Numbered from the stretch's first letter, positions 5,095 to 36,942 are shown. The stretch: DNA of 64,000 bases from an uncultured bacterium (GCA_964614945.1 CAZTNW010000003.1:72838-136837); one strand, 5' to 3'. Notes: generated from the sequence alone by a model not told the origin. Numbers and translations are program-made.

Positions 5095-6255
5095 CTAATT
5101 CATCTGCAGGCGACGGAAAAGCCAGGTACCAGCGGCGAAAAAAAGCACCGTCAATATGAGCAGGGCGGCTAACTCAAAAGCTATCCCGTTCAAGCCTACT
5201 CCAAGATTTAGTACTTTGTTAAGAGCCGTTACAGCATGGCTGGTCGGCAGAAAATCAAACAGTCGAATAGCACGCTCCCCGACATTGAACAGCGGCGGTG
5301 AGGGTACAGGGAAGACGGCACCGGATAAAAACAGTAGCAACAACAAAGGGAAATTGGCAATCACGGCAGCGCGTCCGACCGTACGGGAAAAACAGGCAGT
5401 GATCAATCCTGCCCCGATCGCCGCCGTGGCCGCCATGACACTGATAACGATTGCCAGGACTAAAGAACCAACATAATGATAGCCGAGCGTAATGGCCACT
5501 CCGAAGCTGAGTAATACCGATAACAAGCTAAAGCAACTGTACACCAGGCTTATCCCGCCCATCAGATCGAACGAGCTCATTCTGGTTAGCTTTAGCCGGT
5601 GCAGTGCACCGCTTTCAATCTCCCGTGAGACAGCGATAGCTACAGAAAATATAATCATAGTCAGTGCCGCTACCAGTAAACCGGGTACATAGTTATCAAA
5701 ATCCCGTCTTATAGTTGTGTCTCCAATAAATTCTTCCTGGAGGTTAAAGGGTATTTGCTGTCCTGTAGCCTCCACCACATAGTTTTCCAACTCTGAGACA
5801 ATGAATACGGCAGCTACTACGTAATATGGATGCCCTTGATCACCCATCACAACGGCAGAAGCTTCGGCTGACATTGTGCCGCCGTTATCGTGTACCCGCT
5901 GGATTTCCCGGGTATAACCGGCTGGGAAAATAACCACCGCTACGGCCTGGCGGTCCTTTAGTTTTGACTCGGCCACAGCCTGGGAGTCTAATATTTTAAC
6001 TCGAAGCACAGGTGTACCATCGGTATGTTTCAGGTCGACCAGACGACCAATCACTTCTTCACTGCAATGTTGTTCAATACCGTTTACCTGGTCGTTATTT
6101 ACCACCATTACATCCAGAGGAAGGGCAGCGCCGCTGCCCATGAATATCCAGTAGAGTATGATAAAAAGAGGCGCCAGGGATATGGACAGGATGAGATCCC
6201 ACCTGCTGCGCATCTGCTCTCTAAATGTTTTAACGCAAATCTGCCGCAGTTTCAT
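5095..6255 (-). CDS. ABC-2 family transporter permease
   Basis: 386 aa; N-terminal TM helix, large extracytoplasmic loop, C-terminal cluster of about 5 hydrophobic helices; 4-nt overlap with upstream ATPase gene. Confidence 0.8.
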   Translation of the reverse strand: MKLRQICVKTFREQMRSRWDLILSISLAPLFIILYWIFMGSGAALPLDVMVVNNDQVNGIEQHCSEEVIGRLVDLKHTDGTPVLRVKILDSQAVAESKLKDRQAVAVVIFPAGYTREIQRVHDNGGTMSAEASAVVMGDQGHPYYVVAAVFIVSELENYVVEATGQQIPFNLQEEFIGDTTIRRDFDNYVPGLLVAALTMIIFSVAIAVSREIESGALHRLKLTRMSSFDLMGGISLVYSCFSLLSVLLSFGVAITLGYHYVGSLVLAIVISVMAATAAIGAGLITACFSRTVGRAAVIANFPLLLLLFLSGAVFPVPSPPLFNVGERAIRLFDFLPTSHAVTALNKVLNLGVGLNGIAFELAALLILTVLFFAAGTWLFRRLQMN

Positions 6256-7211
6256 TCGCGTAATCTCCGACCGGTCAGGGCGATAAAGACATCTTCCAGT
6301 GTATTGCCGCGTAATCTGATATCGCCGTGTTTGATACCAATGTCGTTAATCCTCCGGGTGATAGCTGGTAGCAAATCGACAATTCCAAGTGCTCTCATTA
6401 CCAGTATATTGTTTTGCAGGGTAACATTATTAACAATGCTTTTGATTGCCCGGCAGGCGTTCTGCGACAGATCGCCGTTGTTCAAATCTATCTCCAGGAC
6501 ATCTCCCTCACCTAAATTACGCCTCAATGCATTGGGAGTATCCAGCGCCAGTAGAGCCCCGTGGTCTATAATAGCCACCCGGTCGGCCATGCGGTCTGCC
6601 TCATCCATATTATGGGTAGTCAGGATAACAGTGTGTTCTTTATTGGATTTAGCCCAATCCCGTACGTACTCGCGTACCAGCACCCGGCTTTGCGGGTCAA
6701 GCCCTGCCTCAGGTTCGTCAAGGATCAGCAACTTTGGATCATGCATCAACGCTAATGCCAGATTGAGTCGCCGCTGCATACCACCCGAAAGCGTTGCGGC
6801 TAGCTTACGGCGCTTTTCCGTAAGATGAAATATCGCCATCAGGTCTTCGGCGCGTTGCCGGCACATCTTTCGGGGCAGGTCATACATTTCCCCGATGAAG
6901 ACAAGCTGCTCCAGGCAGGTCTGTTTGGGCCAGATTATAATATTTTGCGGACATAGACCGATATCGCTTTTCATCGATTGTTCGAGCGGCTTATCATTAA
7001 AGAAAATGCTACCGCTATCCGGTTTGAGCAGGCCGCACAGCATTGAGATAGTCACTGTCTTTCCAGCACCATTGGGGCCAAGAAGAGCCAGGATTTCACC
7101 GCTTCTGATATCCAGGCTGAGTTCGTTGACTGCCGTGACGTCTCCGAAACGCTTGACCAGTCTTTCGGCTTTTAAAATACACGATACCTTGCCACTAGTT
7201 ATTGGCATCAC
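6252..7211 (-). CDS. ABC transporter ATP-binding protein
   Basis: Walker A GPNGAGKT, ABC signature LSGGMQRR, Walker B LLILDEP. Confidence 0.9.
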   Translation of the reverse strand: MMPITSGKVSCILKAERLVKRFGDVTAVNELSLDIRSGEILALLGPNGAGKTVTISMLCGLLKPDSGSIFFNDKPLEQSMKSDIGLCPQNIIIWPKQTCLEQLVFIGEMYDLPRKMCRQRAEDLMAIFHLTEKRRKLAATLSGGMQRRLNLALALMHDPKLLILDEPEAGLDPQSRVLVREYVRDWAKSNKEHTVILTTHNMDEADRMADRVAIIDHGALLALDTPNALRRNLGEGDVLEIDLNNGDLSQNACRAIKSIVNNVTLQNNILVMRALGIVDLLPAITRRINDIGIKHGDIRLRGNTLEDVFIALTGRRLRE

Positions 7212-7212
7212 T

Positions 7213-7917
7213 TCATCCCTTTAAAGCACTTTCAATAAAAGCCATAAGATTATCCAGAATACGTTCCCGGGCCATGTTTTCATCCGTAAGCTGATAATAC
7301 GTGTTTAAATGTGGCAGTAACTGTGCATCATAGACGGCAATGACCAGTGAATTTACCAAGCGAGCCATTGCCTCAAGGTCGATATCGGTGCGTATTTCAC
7401 CGCGTGATTGCGCCGCTATTAGAATGGATCTGGTCATATCCAACATTACTTGCGCTATGGGTCGTACTATTCTTTCCGTGAGAGCTGGCTCGCCTTGATA
7501 AGCGGCGCGGGTAAAATATCGAATATAACCCTGGTACTCCTTGTCCATTTCATCAGCACCCCGAAGATAGGCTCGCAAAGCATCGAACAGCGGCATTCCT
7601 GTCAAATAAGGTTTGAAATGGGTAAACGCCGCGACCATTTGCCTCGTAGTGATTTCAATGGCGAAGTCAATCAACCCCTGGCGATGGTTGAAATACTGAT
7701 AGAGGGAACCCACAGATACACCGGCTCGTCGCGCCACCTCCTTAATATTGATTAGAGCCGGGCCTTTAAGAGCGGCTTCTTCAAGGATGCTGTTAACGAT
7801 GGATTCACGCCGCGAAGGTTCAAGGCGGAAGAAAGTAGTGGTGATGATACAACTCTTTTGTAAATCGGCAAGTAAGTCTAAATTAAGAAAAGTATTTATC
7901 GATGGATATGAACTCAT
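7213..7917 (-). CDS. TetR/AcrR family transcriptional regulator
   Basis: 234 aa; N-terminal HTH INIKEVARRAGVSVGSLYQYFNHRQGL typical of TetR; directly upstream of and co-directional with the ABC exporter genes. Confidence 0.85.
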   Translation of the reverse strand: MSSYPSINTFLNLDLLADLQKSCIITTTFFRLEPSRRESIVNSILEEAALKGPALINIKEVARRAGVSVGSLYQYFNHRQGLIDFAIEITTRQMVAAFTHFKPYLTGMPLFDALRAYLRGADEMDKEYQGYIRYFTRAAYQGEPALTERIVRPIAQVMLDMTRSILIAAQSRGEIRTDIDLEAMARLVNSLVIAVYDAQLLPHLNTYYQLTDENMARERILDNLMAFIESALKG

Positions 7918-7946
7918 GGTTCATATAATATGAACCATGAGTTCAT
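7908..7946. promoter_or_regulatory. perfect 39-bp palindrome (two 19-bp arms around one central base), candidate TetR operator overlapping the TetR start codon
   Basis: ATGAACTCATGGTTCATAT-A-ATATGAACCATGAGTTCAT read directly; TetR ATG (7915-7917 on minus strand) lies inside the left arm. Confidence 0.6.
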
Positions 7947-8028
7947 AAGTCAAATAGGCTTTCTTTCTGATAAGACTCTCAGGTCATTCATGATTTATTG
8001 GAAGCAATACTTGGAACTTTCTGGAAGT

Positions 8029-8892
8029 CTACATTTTACAAGCGACAACGGCAAACTCTGTGCTCTCCGGGTCAAACGGCGAGCCCGCAACATCCGAGTA
8101 GAAACACTCCACCTTGAATCCGCATTCCAGGAATTCCTTCTCCAGGTCTTCCGGATTGAAATACTGAAGCCAGTTGTAAACAGTCCGGGTGAGATTAGCT
8201 TCTATGATAGTATACTTGTCAAGTATTATCTTTTCCTTTTCATACTTGAAAGTATTTAAAAATCCATAGTATTTATTCGCAGACCAGAAGTTATTTAAAA
8301 GGTTGGTTTCATACATCGCAGTTTCTTTCCGCTGCTCGAATGCTTTCAGTGAATATACATCCAGAAGAACAAACCCTCCGGGTTTTAAAAAACTGTGGAA
8401 TTTAGACAACATTTTATTTCTTTGAGATGGGCTGAGCGCGCAGAAGTCACACATAATCATTAGGATTAGTTCAAACCGGTCATCGGTTTCATATTCCAGG
8501 TAGTTCTGATTGAGATACTTGATGTGTAGTTTCTCTTTACTCGCTACCTCTTGTGCGTACTCAATTGACCTTTTTGAAAAGTCTATTCCGGTTACCACTG
8601 CCTGCTTTCTAGCCAGTCTAGTTGTATATAGTCCTGGGCCGCAACCAAAATCAGCAATCTTTGTTCCAGCACCGATGTTGAATCGAGAAACTATCCAATC
8701 TACCGACTTTTCAATGAATGTTGTCTTACGTGATGAGATATCAATTTCGCCATTCAGGTGGAAGGACAACATCTGTTTTGAGGTGTGATCATCAGTCCAG
8801 AGATCACTTGCTGTATAGAACTCAAATGGTTTAGGACGCGTGTTTATTTTTTCAAGCTCTTCAAACATATGTCTCCATCTTAATACACTCAA
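8029..8892 (-). CDS. class I SAM-dependent methyltransferase
   Basis: 287 aa; motif I DFGCGPGLYT; gene is visibly AT-richer than its neighbours. Confidence 0.85.
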   Translation of the reverse strand: MSVLRWRHMFEELEKINTRPKPFEFYTASDLWTDDHTSKQMLSFHLNGEIDISSRKTTFIEKSVDWIVSRFNIGAGTKIADFGCGPGLYTTRLARKQAVVTGIDFSKRSIEYAQEVASKEKLHIKYLNQNYLEYETDDRFELILMIMCDFCALSPSQRNKMLSKFHSFLKPGGFVLLDVYSLKAFEQRKETAMYETNLLNNFWSANKYYGFLNTFKYEKEKIILDKYTIIEANLTRTVYNWLQYFNPEDLEKEFLECGFKVECFYSDVAGSPFDPESTEFAVVACKM

Positions 8893-9095: not shown

Positions 9096-9399
9096 TTAGC
9101 GGCTGCTTCCAAATTCCGGGGCATTGGTGGTGATTTCGATGGCGAAGTCAAGCAAACCCTGGCGATGGTTGAAATACTGGTAGAGTAAACTCACAGATAC
9201 ACCGGCCTGTCGCGCCACTTCTTTTATATTGATCATGTCAGCCCCTTCAGGGCAGGCTTCTTCGATGATGCTGGCAACGATGGCTTCCCGCCGCGAAACC
9301 TTAAGCCAAATGAAAGTGGTGGTTATAATCCCACGCTGTTGCAGGTCAGTGAGCAAGACCGGGGTCAACAAAAGTGTTGCTTGCGGGATATGAATTCAT
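9096..9399 (-). pseudogene. truncated, frameshifted paralog of the TetR regulator 5' region (HTH domain only)
   Basis: ORF 9096..9371 translation (...IITTTFIWLKVSRREAIVASIIEE...INIKEVARQAGVSVSLLYQYFNHRQGLLDFAIEITT) aligns to residues about 20-90 of the intact TetR; ancestral ATG at 9397-9399 is out of frame and runs into a stop; homology ends near 9128. Confidence 0.7.
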
Positions 9400-9430
9400 G
9401 ATTCATATCATATGAACCTTAGGTTTATAT
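9390..9430. promoter_or_regulatory. degenerate copy of the TetR operator palindrome
   Basis: ATGAATTCATGATTCATATCATATGAACC... matches the left arm of the 7908-7946 palindrome; right arm diverged. Confidence 0.45.
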
Positions 9431-9446
9431 GTCGATTTCACTATTA

Positions 9447-10178
9447 TTATGTGTACCTTTTCCTTTTGAAATCATTGAGTCCGATTCCTGTAAATAAAAT
9501 TCCGGCCAGGGAAAATCCTAATTTTCCGATAATCACTGCTGTTGGAACGATAAAATCCGGTTCGCCGGATGAGCCTACAGGCAGGGTGAGCGGAGCAGTC
9601 CGAAAGAAAGAATCACCCAGCAGATCTAAGGCATAGGGCAAACTAGCTTTCCCCATAAGCAGCAGGAGCAGCATCAGCGCATAAAGCAACGCAGGGTGTA
9701 TCCGTCCAGCCACCATACCAATACCCGTAACAAACAGCATGGACGGCAAGAGGGTCATGATGATCGGATTAACAAAAGCGCCGAAATCGTAAAACCGAAA
9801 GGTATCTGCATAGAACGCAAAGCTGATGCCGATGGTGACACCGGAAATCAGGAGAAAACCGGTCGCTATGGCTAGACATTTAACCGCACCGTATTGCACC
9901 GGATCAATTGGGGTTGCCATGGCCAACACCCGCACCCGCTTTTCTTTTCTGGAATACAGATGGGTGATGAAAAATAGCAGCGTTATAAGGAGCAGCGGTA
10001 GAACTAAAGCCAAGAAAGCGCCATAGCTCCAACTGGAAAATGGTGCGGTATAGGAAACACCTAAAATAATTTCGCCATCCAGGAGCTTCCAGCTGTAGAA
10101 AGCTATGACCAGCAGCAAAACAAGAAAGAATTTATTAAAAATGAGCCTTCTTAGCGCATAGCGAAAGAGTTTACTCAA
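9447..10178 (-). CDS. polytopic membrane protein, probable second permease component
   Basis: 243 aa, about 6 hydrophobic segments; 8-nt overlap with upstream permease-peptidase gene. Confidence 0.6.
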   Translation of the reverse strand: MSKLFRYALRRLIFNKFFLVLLLVIAFYSWKLLDGEIILGVSYTAPFSSWSYGAFLALVLPLLLITLLFFITHLYSRKEKRVRVLAMATPIDPVQYGAVKCLAIATGFLLISGVTIGISFAFYADTFRFYDFGAFVNPIIMTLLPSMLFVTGIGMVAGRIHPALLYALMLLLLLMGKASLPYALDLLGDSFFRTAPLTLPVGSSGEPDFIVPTAVIIGKLGFSLAGILFTGIGLNDFKRKRYT

Positions 10179-12348
10179 CGGAAATCGCCTCCTTTGTCAG
10201 CCCGCAGGCATTCAGAAAATCATTGTAGGTAATGTAGGGCGGCATCTCAGTTCCGCCGTTCTCGTAAAGCTGCGCCAGGACGTTGTCCAGCTTGTCCTCG
10301 CCGCCCATCAATTCGGCTGCCTTCAGGATATTGAGCGGCATGATCTGATACATTTGTGCGCTCTCTTCCTGAGCTCTGATTCTTGCTGTGTATTTCTCGG
10401 GCAGTATATCCATATATTCCGGATGGCGGCGGTAGAAGGAACGGTTCAACGCGTCCAGACCGGCTTTCCACTGATCCAGATAGTATTTCTGGACGTAGGC
10501 CTCACCAAATTTTTCCTTCATCATGCGGTAGGTGGTGTAGACGGTGAGTCCCTCGGAGGACCACGGCTTTTCATCCAAGACGCTTGCGCTCAGCCCCCAC
10601 CATTGATGGATGATTTCATGTGCCAGCACTTCGCTGCTGGTAGCGCCCTCCAGGGAATTGGGATTGTTAAGATGAACGTCGCTGAAAAAGCTCTCTCCCA
10701 TTACACTGAAATTACCGTATGCACCCCCGCCCATTAAATAGGCGGAGGTCTGAATAATTTTGAGAGGGAGATCCTGGCCATAAGGCAGTGGGCCATAATG
10801 CGCGGTACAGTATTCCACCACTTCTGCCATCACCTGCTTTGCGTCCGCGCGCCGCATAGCCTCCTCGTGTTTTTTGCTGTAATAGAATTCAATATGCATT
10901 CCCCCCGCCTCGATGACCTCCATGACATAATCTCCCGCGAAGAGGTTGATCTGGGTTCCTTTGTCGACGGCCAGCCATGTTTTTGTCCCATCCGCGTTGT
11001 CTGAGACCAGTTTGGCGGTATTGCCGGTTGGGATGAGCGTCAGGTTGCTGGGTAGGGTAATGGTACCGATAATCGGGATGTCCTCCGCTTTGGTTCGCAT
11101 GGAGAGCCGCGGCGCAAGGGCGGTACCGCCCAGGTTCACATAGCGGTCACCGACCTCATCGCCCCAGACATCCATTCTGTTCATGGACCATTCCTGTGGG
11201 AATCCGCCGTATTCGACAGCAAGCCTAAGCTCCGGCTCTGCAGGCAGCATGATCGAGACTTCCTTATTGTTATTTGTGTCGTTGTTCAAATCGGTGAACG
11301 GGATGGCTTCGCCATTGACTGTGACCGAGCTAATTTCATATCCGGGATTAACCCGGAAACGGCATTCCTGCGGTTCGGTATTGTCATTTTCGATTTCATA
11401 GACCGCCCTTCCCTGCAGTGTGCCTTTTTTCGTGTTGAGGATTAGATCCACCTTCGTGCTTTTCCAAAACATGTTATCACTATAGATACCCTCAGTTTGC
11501 ACATAGTCCATCGGGCTATGATCGATGTATGGCTGGTAGACGTAGGCAAAGCAACCGCTGCATACCATTAGGGCAGCCAGAAGCGAGAGGCAGATTTTGC
11601 GTGCATTCAAACAAAGAGAGCTAAGAATTCCCCTGCCGTAACGCCGGATACAAAGAAGGGAGAGCAAGTAGCATCCCGACAGCACTGTCAGCCAGAACAG
11701 GCGGTTATAGGTTGCCATGCGGAGGATGCGGACATTGCTGAAATCGTCCGAATAGATGGGGATCAGGGGGTTGACCCAGCGAAGGATGAAATCATCGGAG
11801 AACCACTGGCTCATGCTAAGCAGGGCGAACACGACAAACAAGACGAAGCTGAGATCGACACGGTAGGTGACATGATATAAGGCCGCCGCCGCGAGGATGC
11901 CAAAAAACAAGCTGGGCAGCATCAGCACTAGAAAGCTTGCTATGTACAATTCTGGCACAAAAATATTCTTCATCTCCAGCATGGTATACGGAAGATAAAC
12001 CGTCATGGCCAGCAGTACAGCAACCAGCGCAGGAGCCATTAGTGCCAGTACTCTTGCGCCGTTTAAGGTCAGCGGCGACACGATGGTGTCAGTCAGGGTG
12101 ACGGTCTCGCTTCGATGTACGCGGTCTAATTCATAGAGAGTAAGCAGAGCAAAAAAAACCGCTCCCAAAAGCGCTCCTGTCATAGCAGGATTGGCAATCA
12201 GCGCGGACGCTTTTGTTAAGGTAGGGACCGGTACGTACCACGAATAACCTCCTAGAGGCGCACAGGCGGTCAGCACAAGCGCGAGCCAGGCGCTTTTTGT
12301 TCGGAAGATACGCTTCAGCTCCACAAGAAAAAAAGAGAAGAAGCTCAT
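10171..12348 (-). CDS. ABC transporter permease fused to an M1-family (gluzincin) zinc metallopeptidase domain
   Basis: 725 aa; N-terminal about 260 aa with about 6 TM helices; C-terminal domain carries HEIIHQWWG...WSSEG (HExxHxW...WxxEG M1 zinc signature); ATGA overlap with ATPase gene. Confidence 0.7.
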   Translation of the reverse strand: MSFFSFFLVELKRIFRTKSAWLALVLTACAPLGGYSWYVPVPTLTKASALIANPAMTGALLGAVFFALLTLYELDRVHRSETVTLTDTIVSPLTLNGARVLALMAPALVAVLLAMTVYLPYTMLEMKNIFVPELYIASFLVLMLPSLFFGILAAAALYHVTYRVDLSFVLFVVFALLSMSQWFSDDFILRWVNPLIPIYSDDFSNVRILRMATYNRLFWLTVLSGCYLLSLLCIRRYGRGILSSLCLNARKICLSLLAALMVCSGCFAYVYQPYIDHSPMDYVQTEGIYSDNMFWKSTKVDLILNTKKGTLQGRAVYEIENDNTEPQECRFRVNPGYEISSVTVNGEAIPFTDLNNDTNNNKEVSIMLPAEPELRLAVEYGGFPQEWSMNRMDVWGDEVGDRYVNLGGTALAPRLSMRTKAEDIPIIGTITLPSNLTLIPTGNTAKLVSDNADGTKTWLAVDKGTQINLFAGDYVMEVIEAGGMHIEFYYSKKHEEAMRRADAKQVMAEVVEYCTAHYGPLPYGQDLPLKIIQTSAYLMGGGAYGNFSVMGESFFSDVHLNNPNSLEGATSSEVLAHEIIHQWWGLSASVLDEKPWSSEGLTVYTTYRMMKEKFGEAYVQKYYLDQWKAGLDALNRSFYRRHPEYMDILPEKYTARIRAQEESAQMYQIMPLNILKAAELMGGEDKLDNVLAQLYENGGTEMPPYITYNDFLNACGLTKEAISVE

Positions 12349-13208
12349 CGTTCCGCCTCTTTTGCGATGAGGTAAAGGTATGCATCCTCCAAAGTCGGTT
12401 CCGTCGGCTGCGCGAAGTGAGGAAGATTATCCGCCAGAATCCGGCAGAAGATCCCCTGCGCGGCGTTAACGCGGGCAGTCACCTGATATTGTCTTTCCCG
12501 CGTCTCGCCGATTTGTTCCTCGAATATACCGACATGGCCGCGCGCCTTGAGGATCAATTCGGATGGCTTGCCGTCGAACAGGACAGCCCCGTGATTGATC
12601 ACGATCAGGCGGTTGCAGACCGATTGTACATCTTCAATGATATGAGTGGAGAGCAATACGGTCTTATTTTGCGCGCTGCGTGAGAATAGATTGCGGAAGC
12701 CCAGTCGTTCCTCAGGATCGAGTCCAGCCGTGGGCTCATCAAATATCAACAGTTCCGGATCGCCTAACAGCGCCTGTGCAATGCCCACGCGTTGTTTCTG
12801 GCCACCGGACAGTGTGCCGATGCGGGCTTTTCTTTTTTCATTGAGATTGGTCTCCTCGATAACTTTTAAAATGGCGGACTTGCTGTTTTTTACTCCCTTA
12901 AGGGCTGTCATATAGTCGAGGAATTGGTAAACGGTCAGCTCCTCATAAAGTCCGAAGCTCTGCGGCAGATACCCCAACCTGGATTTAAAATTCTTCTCAA
13001 CCTTCACCAGCAGCTGCCCATCCACCAGAATCCGACCGGAGGTGGGGAGCAGCTCTGCTACCAGCAGTTTCATCAGCGTGCTTTTGCCTGCGCCATTAGG
13101 GCCCAAAAGCCCGGTAAAACTGGGACTTTCCAGCGAGAGCCCCACATCTTTCAGCGCCTCCTTTCCTGTTCTATAGGTCATATTTAGATCCTGTATTTCG
13201 ATTTTCAA
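12345..13208 (-). CDS. ABC transporter ATP-binding protein
   Basis: Walker A GPNGAGKST, signature LSGGQKQR, Walker B LLIFDEP. Confidence 0.9.
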   Translation of the reverse strand: MKIEIQDLNMTYRTGKEALKDVGLSLESPSFTGLLGPNGAGKSTLMKLLVAELLPTSGRILVDGQLLVKVEKNFKSRLGYLPQSFGLYEELTVYQFLDYMTALKGVKNSKSAILKVIEETNLNEKRKARIGTLSGGQKQRVGIAQALLGDPELLIFDEPTAGLDPEERLGFRNLFSRSAQNKTVLLSTHIIEDVQSVCNRLIVINHGAVLFDGKPSELILKARGHVGIFEEQIGETRERQYQVTARVNAAQGIFCRILADNLPHFAQPTEPTLEDAYLYLIAKEAER

Positions 13209-35567: not shown

Positions 35568-36942
35568 ACGGGTTTTGAATTATTGGGATCTTTTCTTCTT
35601 CACGGTTTGCGCAATTTTGGTGATGGATACCGTGGCCTCTTCGGCCGCCATCGGAAATCAATCATTTTTCTGGTGGTTGATCACTCTTTTTTTCTTTTTC
35701 CTTCCTTATGGCCTGATCACTGCTGAACTGGGGTCGGCCTGGCCATCCCAGGGCGGAATATATCTCTGGGTGAAGGAGGCACTCGGCGACGGGTGGGGGG
35801 TAATGACTTCCTGGCTCTACTGGATCAACGTGGCATTCTGGATGCCCTCGGTTTATCTTCTCTTTGCTGGGACCCTGGCGACCTTATTTTTCCCTGAAAT
35901 GAGCACCTGGGGTCAAGTGTTCATCGCCATCGGAATGACCTGGCTCACAGTTTTTCTGGGGATTATCGCCTTGGAAAAATCAAAATGGATCCCCAACCTG
36001 GGAGCGATATTCAAGGCCTTGATCATGCTTTTCCTCGGTGCGCTGGGAATCAGCTGGATAATCAGTAGGGGCTATGCCAATCCCTCCGCTTTCGCGGACT
36101 TCACCCCCTCCTGGTCCAACACACTCGCTTTTCTTCCCGTGGTGGTCTACAACTACATGGGCTTTGAGCTGATGAGCTCGGCCGGGGAGGAGATCAAACA
36201 TCCGCAGAGGAATGTCCCCAAGGCCATCATCTTCTCGGGGATCGCCATCTTCGTCCTCTACATCCTCGGCACTTTCGGCATACTCGCCATTTTGCCCCTG
36301 GACCAGATCTCCATTGTCACAGGGATTATTGACGCCATCAAAGCAGTGATGGTGGATTTGGGGACGACAGGAGAGATCCTATCTATCGTCTTCGGCATTG
36401 CAATCCTGTACTCCTTCCTCGCCAATATGATGACCTGGTCCATTGGAGCGAACAGGGTTGTGGCGGCGACGGCGGGTGAGAAAAAACTTCCCCTCTTCCT
36501 CGGCCATCTGAACCGGAAGTTCCGCACTCCCGATTTCGCCTTCATCGCCATGGGGATCCTGGGGACACTGCTTCTTGTGGGAAATGGTTTTCTCGCTGAG
36601 AACCCGGAGAATATTTTCTGGCAGCTATTCGCCCTCTCCAGCCTGCTCTTCCTCCTTCCCTACCTCCTCATGTTCCCGGCATTTTTACGCTTGCGCTACA
36701 CTCGTCCGGCCGTCTCCCGCCCCTACAGAGTGCCCGGGGGAAAGAGTCTGGCCTGGATCCTGGCGACTTTAGGTGAGTTTCTCATCCTTCTTTCCTGTAT
36801 CTTTTTCTTCCTTCCGCCAGAGGGAACGGAGAATGTCCTCATTTATGAACTCCAATTAGGCGGGGTCACGGTCATCGTACTGTTCTTGGGGCTGATCCTC
36901 TATCTTTGGCGAAAAACAGCGAGCAAATCGTCGAGAGGGTAG
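35548..36942 (+). CDS. APC-superfamily amino acid permease / antiporter
   Basis: about 12 hydrophobic segments; AAAGGAGG RBS before ATG at 35548; overlaps carbamoyltransferase stop. Confidence 0.85.
   Translation: MAQEKFKRVLNYWDLFFFTVCAILVMDTVASSAAIGNQSFFWWLITLFFFFLPYGLITAELGSAWPSQGGIYLWVKEALGDGWGVMTSWLYWINVAFWMPSVYLLFAGTLATLFFPEMSTWGQVFIAIGMTWLTVFLGIIALEKSKWIPNLGAIFKALIMLFLGALGISWIISRGYANPSAFADFTPSWSNTLAFLPVVVYNYMGFELMSSAGEEIKHPQRNVPKAIIFSGIAIFVLYILGTFGILAILPLDQISIVTGIIDAIKAVMVDLGTTGEILSIVFGIAILYSFLANMMTWSIGANRVVAATAGEKKLPLFLGHLNRKFRTPDFAFIAMGILGTLLLVGNGFLAENPENIFWQLFALSSLLFLLPYLLMFPAFLRLRYTRPAVSRPYRVPGGKSLAWILATLGEFLILLSCIFFFLPPEGTENVLIYELQLGGVTVIVLFLGLILYLWRKTASKSSRG

Follow-up and report, generated by a model that had tools for sequence, protein, structure and literature searches.

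TetR/QacR-type systems couple autoregulation of a repressor to an export pump and are induced by the substrate of that pump. Another member of the TetR family, HlyIIR, reportedly binds a long perfect inverted repeat as two dimers, an observation ascribed to Rodikova and colleagues in 2007 (cited in PMC3566180); it controls a toxin gene and not a leaderless operon of its own. Most TetR operators accommodate one dimer per approximately 15 bp, with inverted repeats of about 5 bp (PMC9210681), and two dimers at one promoter have been described for Tn10/Tn1721 TetR (tandem tetO), QacR and CgmR (PMC9210681). Here, we analyze a perfect palindrome in a 64,000-nucleotide stretch of DNA from an uncultured bacterium (GCA_964614945.1 CAZTNW010000003.1:72838-136837, henceforth termed the window). 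The palindrome very probably constitutes the promoter and operator of a tetR/ABC ATPase/ABC-2 permease operon, with two TetR sites through which the repressor would regulate its own synthesis. Its core comprises the following features, with positions counted from the first letter of the window.

7907 to 7947, no strand: perfect palindrome (repeat finder; arms 100% complementary and 1 nt apart)
7948 to 7953, minus strand: -35-like hexamer TTGACT (promoter scan; the family has TTGACA at the same position)
7931 to 7945, minus strand: putative operator site O1, TGAACTCATGGTTCA on the gene strand, filling the spacer between -35 and -10 (motif scan)
7925 to 7930, minus strand: -10-like hexamer TATTAT at the palindrome centre (promoter scan; family consensus TATAAT(A/G) between both sites)
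7909 to 7923, minus strand: putative operator site O2, TGAACCATGAGTTCA on the gene strand, spanning the predicted transcription start (motif scan)
7213 to 7917, minus strand: gene of a TetR-family repressor of 234 amino acids, first of the operon (Pfam TetR_N, E = 1.9e-7)
6252 to 7211, minus strand: ABC transporter ATPase (Pfam ABC_tran, E = 1.5e-32), with an open reading frame (ORF) overlapping the TetR stop codon
5095 to 6255, minus strand: ABC-2 type permease, third gene of the operon (Pfam ABC2_membrane_3, E = 3e-30)

HlyIIR shares with the window the combination of a TetR-family protein and a long perfect inverted repeat, as well as two dimers per operator, which for the window would be a prediction; its sequence is unrelated. 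Compared with the classical pump regulators, the arrangement is different: tetA and tetR have divergent promoters and IR1 of QacR is one long overlapping site, whereas in the window two separate sites bracket a single -10 hexamer. Likewise, the Tn10/QacR-type pumps belong to the major facilitator superfamily, whereas the window promoter would drive the repressor together with an ABC-type exporter.

A closer parallel in gene organization is AcuR from Rhodobacter sphaeroides, a TetR-family protein encoded by the first gene of the operon it represses, with an inverted-repeat operator that overlaps the promoter (PMC3017554). Its transcript starts at the AUG without a Shine-Dalgarno sequence, as predicted for the window, and this arrangement is kept in diverse bacteria (PMC3017554). 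AcuR differs in having only one repeat, which is of the 8-N6-8 type (TAATAGAC-N6-GTCTATTA) and precedes the ATG, whereas the window has two 5-N5-5 sites with the ATG inside the second; its cargo concerns acrylate and dimethylsulfoniopropionate instead of an ABC-2 exporter, and the two proteins are related only as TetR-family members. At the level of half-sites, the closest match is RolR from Corynebacterium glutamicum, which binds a 29-bp operator as a pair of homodimers through TGAAC-N4-GTTCA and TTCAT-N2-ATGAA (PMC9210681). The window contains the same half-sites as TGAAC-N5-GTTCA and, across the centre, TTCAT-N5-ATGAA, but with N5/N5 in place of N4/N2 spacing, and RolR is not among the PDB sequence matches of its repressor. 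BioQ from Corynebacterium and Mycobacterium is likewise a TetR-type regulator with a TGAAC-type half-site, but its 13-bp motif, printed as TGAAC-N3-GTTAC (PMC9210681), is a single site in a biotin regulon, and no sequence relationship was detected. A literature search limited to one library found no paper with the motif TGAAC-N5-GTTCA.

Two putative operator sites around one promoter

The first-pass annotation of this DNA, made from the sequence alone, had reported a perfect palindrome with 19-bp arms at 7908-7946, which was correct but one base pair short on each side. By direct reading and with a repeat finder, two 20-bp arms (7907-7926 and 7928-7947) pair without mismatch around the single middle base A7927, and symmetry is broken at the next outer pair (7906/7948, A/A). 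Our own arithmetic (4^-20 x 64,000) yields an expectation of approximately 6e-8 palindromes with perfect 20-bp arms in 64 kb. Each arm is a small palindrome itself: the sequence ATGAAC-N5-GTTCAT occurs without mismatch at 7908-7924 and 7930-7946 and with one to two mismatches at 9390-9406 and 9412-9428, and no further convincing copy was found elsewhere in the window. Of the initial view that this is one operator longer and more perfect than is typical for the family, the perfection therefore stands, but the single oversized operator gives way to two ordinary 15-bp TetR-type sites.

O1 and O2 each read TGAAC-N5-GTTCA. Their 5-bp half-sites lie 10 bp apart from centre to centre and the two sites 22 bp apart, i.e., about two helical turns, a geometry that fits the one-dimer operators described above. 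A promoter scan identified TTGACT-17 nt-TATTAT, a sigma-70-type promoter with 10 of 12 consensus matches that is in register with the palindrome. The -35-like hexamer is located 2 bp upstream of O1 and O2 starts one base after the -10-like hexamer, which is thus flanked by both sites. As judged by consensus matches, the sites overlap a promoter in the window and in about 30 relatives. A divergent promoter on the plus strand was considered as well: TATAAT is present at 7924-7929, yet the corresponding -35 position reads GATGGA, and this candidate was rejected.

These features suggest a simple mechanism. One TetR dimer would bind each of O1 and O2, and both would jointly block RNA polymerase at the promoter; two dimers per operator are compatible with two complete sites spaced by 22 bp. 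TetR would be released by a small molecule, for which a substrate of the downstream exporter is a plausible candidate, and would thereby control its own synthesis and that of the exporter. The present data show the anatomy of the element, its conservation, its specificity and its gene context; that TetR binds, in how many copies it does so, where transcription starts, what the inducer is and how the perfect symmetry arose are points that we infer.

The TetR start codon was noted early on to lie within the left arm. This was borne out, with ATG 7917-7915 being the sole in-frame start of the 234-codon ORF. It occupies the dyad centre of O2 and begins 7 nt after the -10 hexamer. No Shine-Dalgarno sequence precedes it; the sequence between -10 and ATG is ATGAACC, without a purine-rich stretch. 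Because of this spacing and the missing Shine-Dalgarno sequence, the TetR transcript is probably leaderless, with its 5' end at or beside the AUG. Precedents are acuR-acuI-dddL, in which the 5' end was mapped to the AUG of the TetR-type first gene at an operator overlapping the promoter, and Tn1721 tetR (PMC3017554). As a consequence of its position, the right half-site of O2 doubles as the codons for TetR residues 2 and 3.

Of 22 non-redundant two-site promoters, 13 have the start codon in the O2 centre (offset 6 or 7), and so do five additional close homologs. Offset 6 (xATGx) yields the N-termini M-S-S or M-G-S and offset 7 (xxATG) M-V-H or M-V-Q, and residues 2 and 3 are in both registers exactly those dictated by the half-site GTTCA. 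In one close homolog (L157 395-409 / L158 213-227), GTG takes the place of ATG in the O2 centre as the apparent start, which would be an unusual leaderless start if the transcript is leaderless. In the remaining members, 19-21 nt separate the ATG from the start of O2; the O2 centre then reads AAAGG, TAAGG or AGAGG and resembles a Shine-Dalgarno sequence, which is seemingly embedded in this way in L009, L010, L013, L014, L015, L017, L018, L021, L027 and L111.

Conservation of the layout within one TetR subfamily

In total, 374 relatives of the TetR protein were detected, mostly of 230-236 amino acids and mostly from metagenome bins of Chloroflexota/Anaerolineales; the placement of the window in Chloroflexota rests on the names of these relatives. 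The window itself has matches in the Logan assemblies DRR438493/4 and in an NCBI contig. Their upstream DNA was obtained by exact-protein look-up, by a metagenome scan with the family alignment, and by scanning 185,579 species genomes for the DNA pattern. A shared layout emerged that reads, on the gene strand, cTTGACA, 2 nt, TGAAC-N5-GTTCA, TATAAT(A/G), TGAAC-N5-GTTCA. It precedes more than 30 related TetR genes from Chloroflexota, Spirochaetota and Actinomycetota; the aligned relatives encode proteins 31-75% identical to that of the window. Per site, all ten half-site positions are near-invariant, as is the -10 hexamer, and both N5 centres are variable. O2 is the best-conserved site in the family, and O1 is kept 2 nt after the -35 hexamer.

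The metagenome set was selected by protein rather than DNA similarity and comprises 21 loci with upstream DNA. A perfect site directly follows the -10 hexamer in 15 of these, or in 17 if L026 and L028 are re-registered on TATAAT, and both sites are present with at most one mismatch in 11 of 21. L013, L018, L022 and L026-L028 have O2 only, or O2 and a site further downstream; in L011, O2 is disrupted by an indel, and upstream of the TetR gene of L025 (42% identity) the motif was not found. Most family loci with enough downstream DNA contain the TetR-ABC ATPase-ABC-2 permease module, and alternative cargo consists of a nitroreductase (L003) or a flavodoxin-like 4Fe-4S protein (L110 and L122). 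Since the cargo varies and the TetR gene alone is a constant partner of the site, we favor autoregulation.

This association is specific. Among 58 other TetR loci, which the metagenome scan returned through a shared GSLYQYF recognition-helix motif, none carries the site within -150 to +30 of the projected start. The first-pass suggestion of an autoregulatory TetR operator is therefore very probably right, with the same motif in the same place before more than 30 related genes and at none of these controls.

The gene next to the palindrome encodes a TetR-family protein with a helix-turn-helix (HTH) and a helical ligand domain. TetR_N scored 31.2 bits against a cut-off of 24, and C-terminal TetR matches in Pfam were weak. 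An AlphaFold model (mean predicted local distance difference test score, pLDDT, 87.7; predicted template modelling score 0.82) has an all-helical TetR fold, and the top Foldseek matches are TetR proteins such as LuxR/HapR, KstR and EilR. In this model an extra helical segment, residues 7-30, precedes the TetR fold, and the family alignment places the invariant residues T26, T28, F29, L32 and R36 here. The conserved extension of about 33 residues before helix alpha-1 (residues 1-35, 7917-7813, minus strand) is modelled as helical, with a pLDDT of approximately 92. It might contribute to DNA recognition, which could explain the absence of the operator at the 58 other TetR genes with the same helix motif.

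In the DNA-pattern scan, the exact double-site pattern returned 66 matches in the species genomes; with 20 fixed bases and 596 Gb, about one would be expected. A family TetR gene, defined by an HTH profile match with E <=1e-20 within 2 kb, adjoins 13 of the 66; these 13 all share the promoter layout, and the 53 others have no such gene beside them. The spacer resembles TATAAT and the -35 hexamer is of the TTGACA type in ten of the 13, whereas in the three loci from high-GC actinobacteria (L096, L114 and L132) the -10 has diverged and the -35 is not clearly recognizable. The 13 originate from Anaerolineales, Thermoflexales, Chloroflexia, three spirochaete metagenome-assembled genomes (MAGs), two Propionibacteriaceae MAGs and one other Actinomycetota MAG, and six family genomes retain the AT-rich site at a G+C content of 68-74%.

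The matches outside the family fall into Prevotella arrays, archaeal arrays and singletons. Prevotella sp. RUI320 / CM_BacPre2364.104 contains arrays of about three copies of the 22-bp unit TGAACTATTAGTTCAGCGGCCT on more than 25 contigs of one MAG (L089, L091, L097, L101, L103, L106, L108, L116, L117, L127, L129, L131, L137, L140, L147, L152 and others), which is a dispersed tandem-repeat element unrelated to the TetR operator. Archaeal MAGs (Thermococcus, Archaeoglobales, Methanomassiliicoccales and Thermoplasmata) and a few candidate-phylum MAGs carry arrays with a 22-bp period of the form GTTCA-N7-TGAAC-N5, unit ATTTCGTTCATGATTTGTGAAC (L090 4821-4887, L099, L102, L123, L125, L138, L139, L141, L143, L145 and L149; also L119, L128 and L144), in which half-sites and period are those of the TetR double site in another context. 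In Actinosynnema pretiosum (L134 1-8000), nine exact TGAAC-N5-GTTCA sites occur in 8 kb among many other short tandem repeats, with no family TetR near them.

Such arrays, together with the presence of two copies 1.48 kb apart in the window, could be taken as signs of a dispersed repeat, of a mobile-element end or of a recombination site, lying beside TetR genes by coincidence. We find this scarcely tenable. Both window copies, one intact and one decayed, are located in homologous TetR 5' regions, and the 64 kb contain no other good copy, as would be expected neither of a dispersed repeat nor of a miniature inverted-repeat transposable element. In more than 30 other genomes the element keeps a fixed distance to the TetR start with promoter hexamers in register. 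In the Prevotella and archaeal arrays, TATAAT is replaced by G+C-rich or otherwise divergent spacers, and none of them is close to a TetR gene. Within the window, then, no dispersed repeat without relation to TetR genes was found, although the bare motif is not unique to the family.

Binding of the sites by another regulator, such as a LexA-like global repressor, is also very improbable. The Gram-positive (Cheo-type) SOS box is GAAC-N4-GTTC and lies upstream of DNA-repair genes, and the GAAC/GTTC half-sites resemble it. However, every site in the family has an N5 instead of the N4 spacing of this consensus. The site tracks one TetR subfamily across three phyla while the cargo changes, its neighbors in the window are TetR and ABC genes, and it was not found at other promoters there. 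A regulon search of the window for TGAAC-N5-GTTCA with at most one mismatch returned a sole extra match, at 36509, which is at chance level.

Symmetry over the whole length

Placing TGAAC-N5-GTTCA on either side of TATAATA already makes 27 of 37 core positions symmetric, and full perfection needs only an O1 centre that is the reverse complement of the O2 centre. Of the 22 two-site promoters, made non-redundant by clustering on flanks and centres, four are perfect over the whole length (window, L110, L111 and L023) with three different sequences. When centres are paired across loci, perfection by chance amounts to 1.5% per locus, and a permutation test gives p = 1.2e-4 for the observed four. 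The imperfect promoters have one arm mismatch (L015), two (L148) or 3-6 (the remainder), and five further close relatives of the window gene have 2-6 each, leaving the window as the sole perfect member of its own clade. In L023, neither half-site pair follows the consensus (TGAAA...ATTCA and TGAAT...TTTCA), and each deviation in one arm has its mirror image in the other. As far as these alignments tell, perfection over the whole length is not required for the conserved layout and is lineage-specific.

Template switching at quasi-palindromes is known to convert imperfect into perfect inverted repeats (PMC7202029). Since the arm mismatches are bimodal (0-1 versus 2-6) and the deviations in L023 mirrored, as fits such an event, the perfection most likely arose by one arm copying the other on a sequence that was near-symmetric beforehand. 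Alternatively, the whole 41-bp palindrome might be the functional unit, read by a tetramer (dimer of dimers) with its two-fold axis through the -10 hexamer and with selection keeping the arms identical. The over-representation of perfect symmetry speaks for this possibility, as do the L023 sites, which mirror each other though neither is itself palindromic, the identical 45 bp in the window and the distant family member L122 described below, and the two HlyIIR dimers that reportedly occupy a long perfect inverted repeat. Yet most family promoters, including those of the eight closest relatives of the window gene, contain 2-6 mismatches confined to the centres, and several members keep only O2, or O2 and a downstream site. 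The bimodal mismatches are also better explained by conversion followed by decay than by steady selection. Because most members are without whole-length symmetry, we rate the tetramer below arm copying and consider it unlikely overall.

Several points weigh against the interpretation as an autoregulatory operator composed of two ordinary sites. One is the excess of perfect symmetry itself, and another is L122, from a spirochaete, which matches the window base for base over 45 bp, from the -35 hexamer through O2, at a TetR identity of only about 30%; both might indicate that the palindrome is read whole, as one unit. In other phyla, the bare double-site pattern is also present in contexts without relation to the family. 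The repressor has no characterized close relative, its best PDB sequence match having E = 8e-8 and its structural neighbors being at most 22% identical, and it is a member of an uncharacterized subfamily. Furthermore, the promoter hexamers are assigned by consensus, in a phylum whose promoters have received little study, and the site scan of this genome covered the 64-kb window.

The 45-bp stretch of L122 (4362-4418) consists of TTGACTTA + TGAACTCATGGTTCA + TATTATA + TGAACCATGAGTTCA, and L110 (4681-4737) differs from the 45 bp of the window by one base. Both loci belong to Spirochaetales/Spirochaetaceae MAGs of approximately 70% G+C, encode TetR proteins about 29-31% identical to that of the window and have another downstream gene. 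Convergence or transfer could account for the identity, which stays puzzling under arm copying and under the tetramer alike. A more speculative idea, to which we give limited credence, is that TetR gene, promoter and operator form a compact cross-phylum cassette of about 45 bp, with the ATG on the dyad, that has been repeatedly perfected by template switching or by tetrameric reading. If true, it would account for the identical 45 bp in a Chloroflexota member and a high-GC spirochaete with repressors of about 30% identity.

Neighboring genes, the degenerate copy and implications

All genes of the region lie on the minus strand. In the direction of transcription, an M1-peptidase-like and a 243-residue membrane protein (12348-9447) are followed by the degenerate palindrome, a TetR fragment of 91 codons (9371-9096), a methyltransferase (8892/8868-8029), the perfect palindrome, TetR (7917-7213), the ABC ATPase (7211-6252) and the ABC-2 permease (6255-5095). 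The ATPase is probably co-transcribed with TetR, because its ORF overlaps the TetR stop codon. Upstream of the operon, three features bear on the second copy.

9389 to 9435, minus strand: degenerate second promoter/operator (repeat finder and promoter scan)
9096 to 9399, minus strand: remnant of a TetR paralogue, with ATG 9399-9397 in site O2' and a 1-nt insertion about 14 codons in
8029 to 8892, minus strand: S-adenosylmethionine-dependent methyltransferase (Pfam Methyltransf_25, E = 4.6e-20), with a probable start at ATG 8868 after GGAGA

The degenerate second copy mentioned in the first-pass annotation is real: 9389-9430 is 83% complementary to the first copy, and 9367-9433 is a 78% direct match to 7885-7951. 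According to the promoter scan it retains an equivalent promoter, TCGACA-17-TATGAT, with the -35 at 9435-9430, O1' at 9413-9427, the -10 at 9412-9407 and O2' at 9391-9405. O1' contains one mismatch and O2' two symmetric ones (TGAAT...ATTCA); the C-to-T change at the fifth half-site position of O2' also occurs singly in natural sites of L010, L014 and L017. This copy is part of a larger diverged duplication that reaches from the -35 hexamer to about codon 91 of TetR. The segment 9081-9441 can be aligned to the intact promoter together with the first ~91 codons; near 9127 the homology ends abruptly. After repair of the frameshift, the remnant is 69% identical to TetR residues 1-91, with the family-invariant G52, P53, G70 and S71 replaced. 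By these alignments, 9096-9435 is the promoter/operator of a decayed TetR paralogue. The remnant breaks off just upstream of the methyltransferase, which looks like an old rearrangement or insertion.

The methyltransferase accompanies TetR in no other family locus. It had been proposed that the palindrome might control this gene as a divergent or upstream target; since the gene lies upstream on the same strand and ends 82 bp before the palindrome, the palindrome cannot control its initiation. As a conjecture that we consider less likely than not, the relic promoter might instead drive the methyltransferase under TetR control. A leaderless start of this gene from TTCACA-17-TAAGAT was rejected, as GGAGA precedes ATG 8868. 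Upstream of the relic promoter, 9447-13208 (minus strand) harbors a second putative transporter-like cluster with a 287-residue ORF, a membrane protein of 725 residues with a weak M1-peptidase match and the 243-residue membrane protein, which has a weak ABC-2 match.

A further alternative is that the palindrome acts as RNA, i.e., as a hairpin of 19-20 bp that terminates or processes read-through from the methyltransferase. Positioned 82 nt past the methyltransferase stop codon, the minus-strand sequence 8040-7880 indeed folds into a perfect 19-bp stem (minimum free energy -44.9 kcal/mol, z = -6.45). However, no U-tract follows the stem (UAUCCAUCGAUAAAUAC), a terminator scan remained silent, and nothing with the makeup of a rho-independent terminator was found; Rfam returned a chance hairpin match of 22 bits against a gathering score of 90. 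The other family loci lack the methyltransferase altogether, and in L003 the upstream gene is divergent and leaves nothing to terminate, yet the site is conserved regardless. The O1 centre varies freely in relatives without compensation, and any RNA initiated at the TetR promoter would have its 5' end within O2 and be unable to form the stem. We thus regard a function as RNA as highly improbable.

On every feature tested, the window element behaves as a member of the TetR operator class, and most likely it is an ordinary self-regulating switch whose layout is unusually well conserved across three phyla. The general understanding of TetR regulation is unchanged by it, and its modest interest lies in how deeply the layout is conserved across phyla, in the position of the start codon on the operator dyad and in a palindrome that has become perfect more than once. 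The family's bimodal set of perfect and imperfect palindromes makes up a small natural collection for studying how near-palindromes bound by proteins acquire full symmetry, and the element may find use as a compact promoter that can be repressed. Little has been documented about promoters and leaderless translation in these largely uncultured lineages, for which a promoter kept in more than 30 genomes provides a useful reference. For a TetR subfamily that has no characterized member, is widespread in Anaerolineae-type Chloroflexota and also occurs in Spirochaetota and Actinomycetota, the analysis offers a concrete predicted operator (TGAAC-N5-GTTCA, twice) and promoter layout, usually beside an ABC-2 exporter as the putative target.

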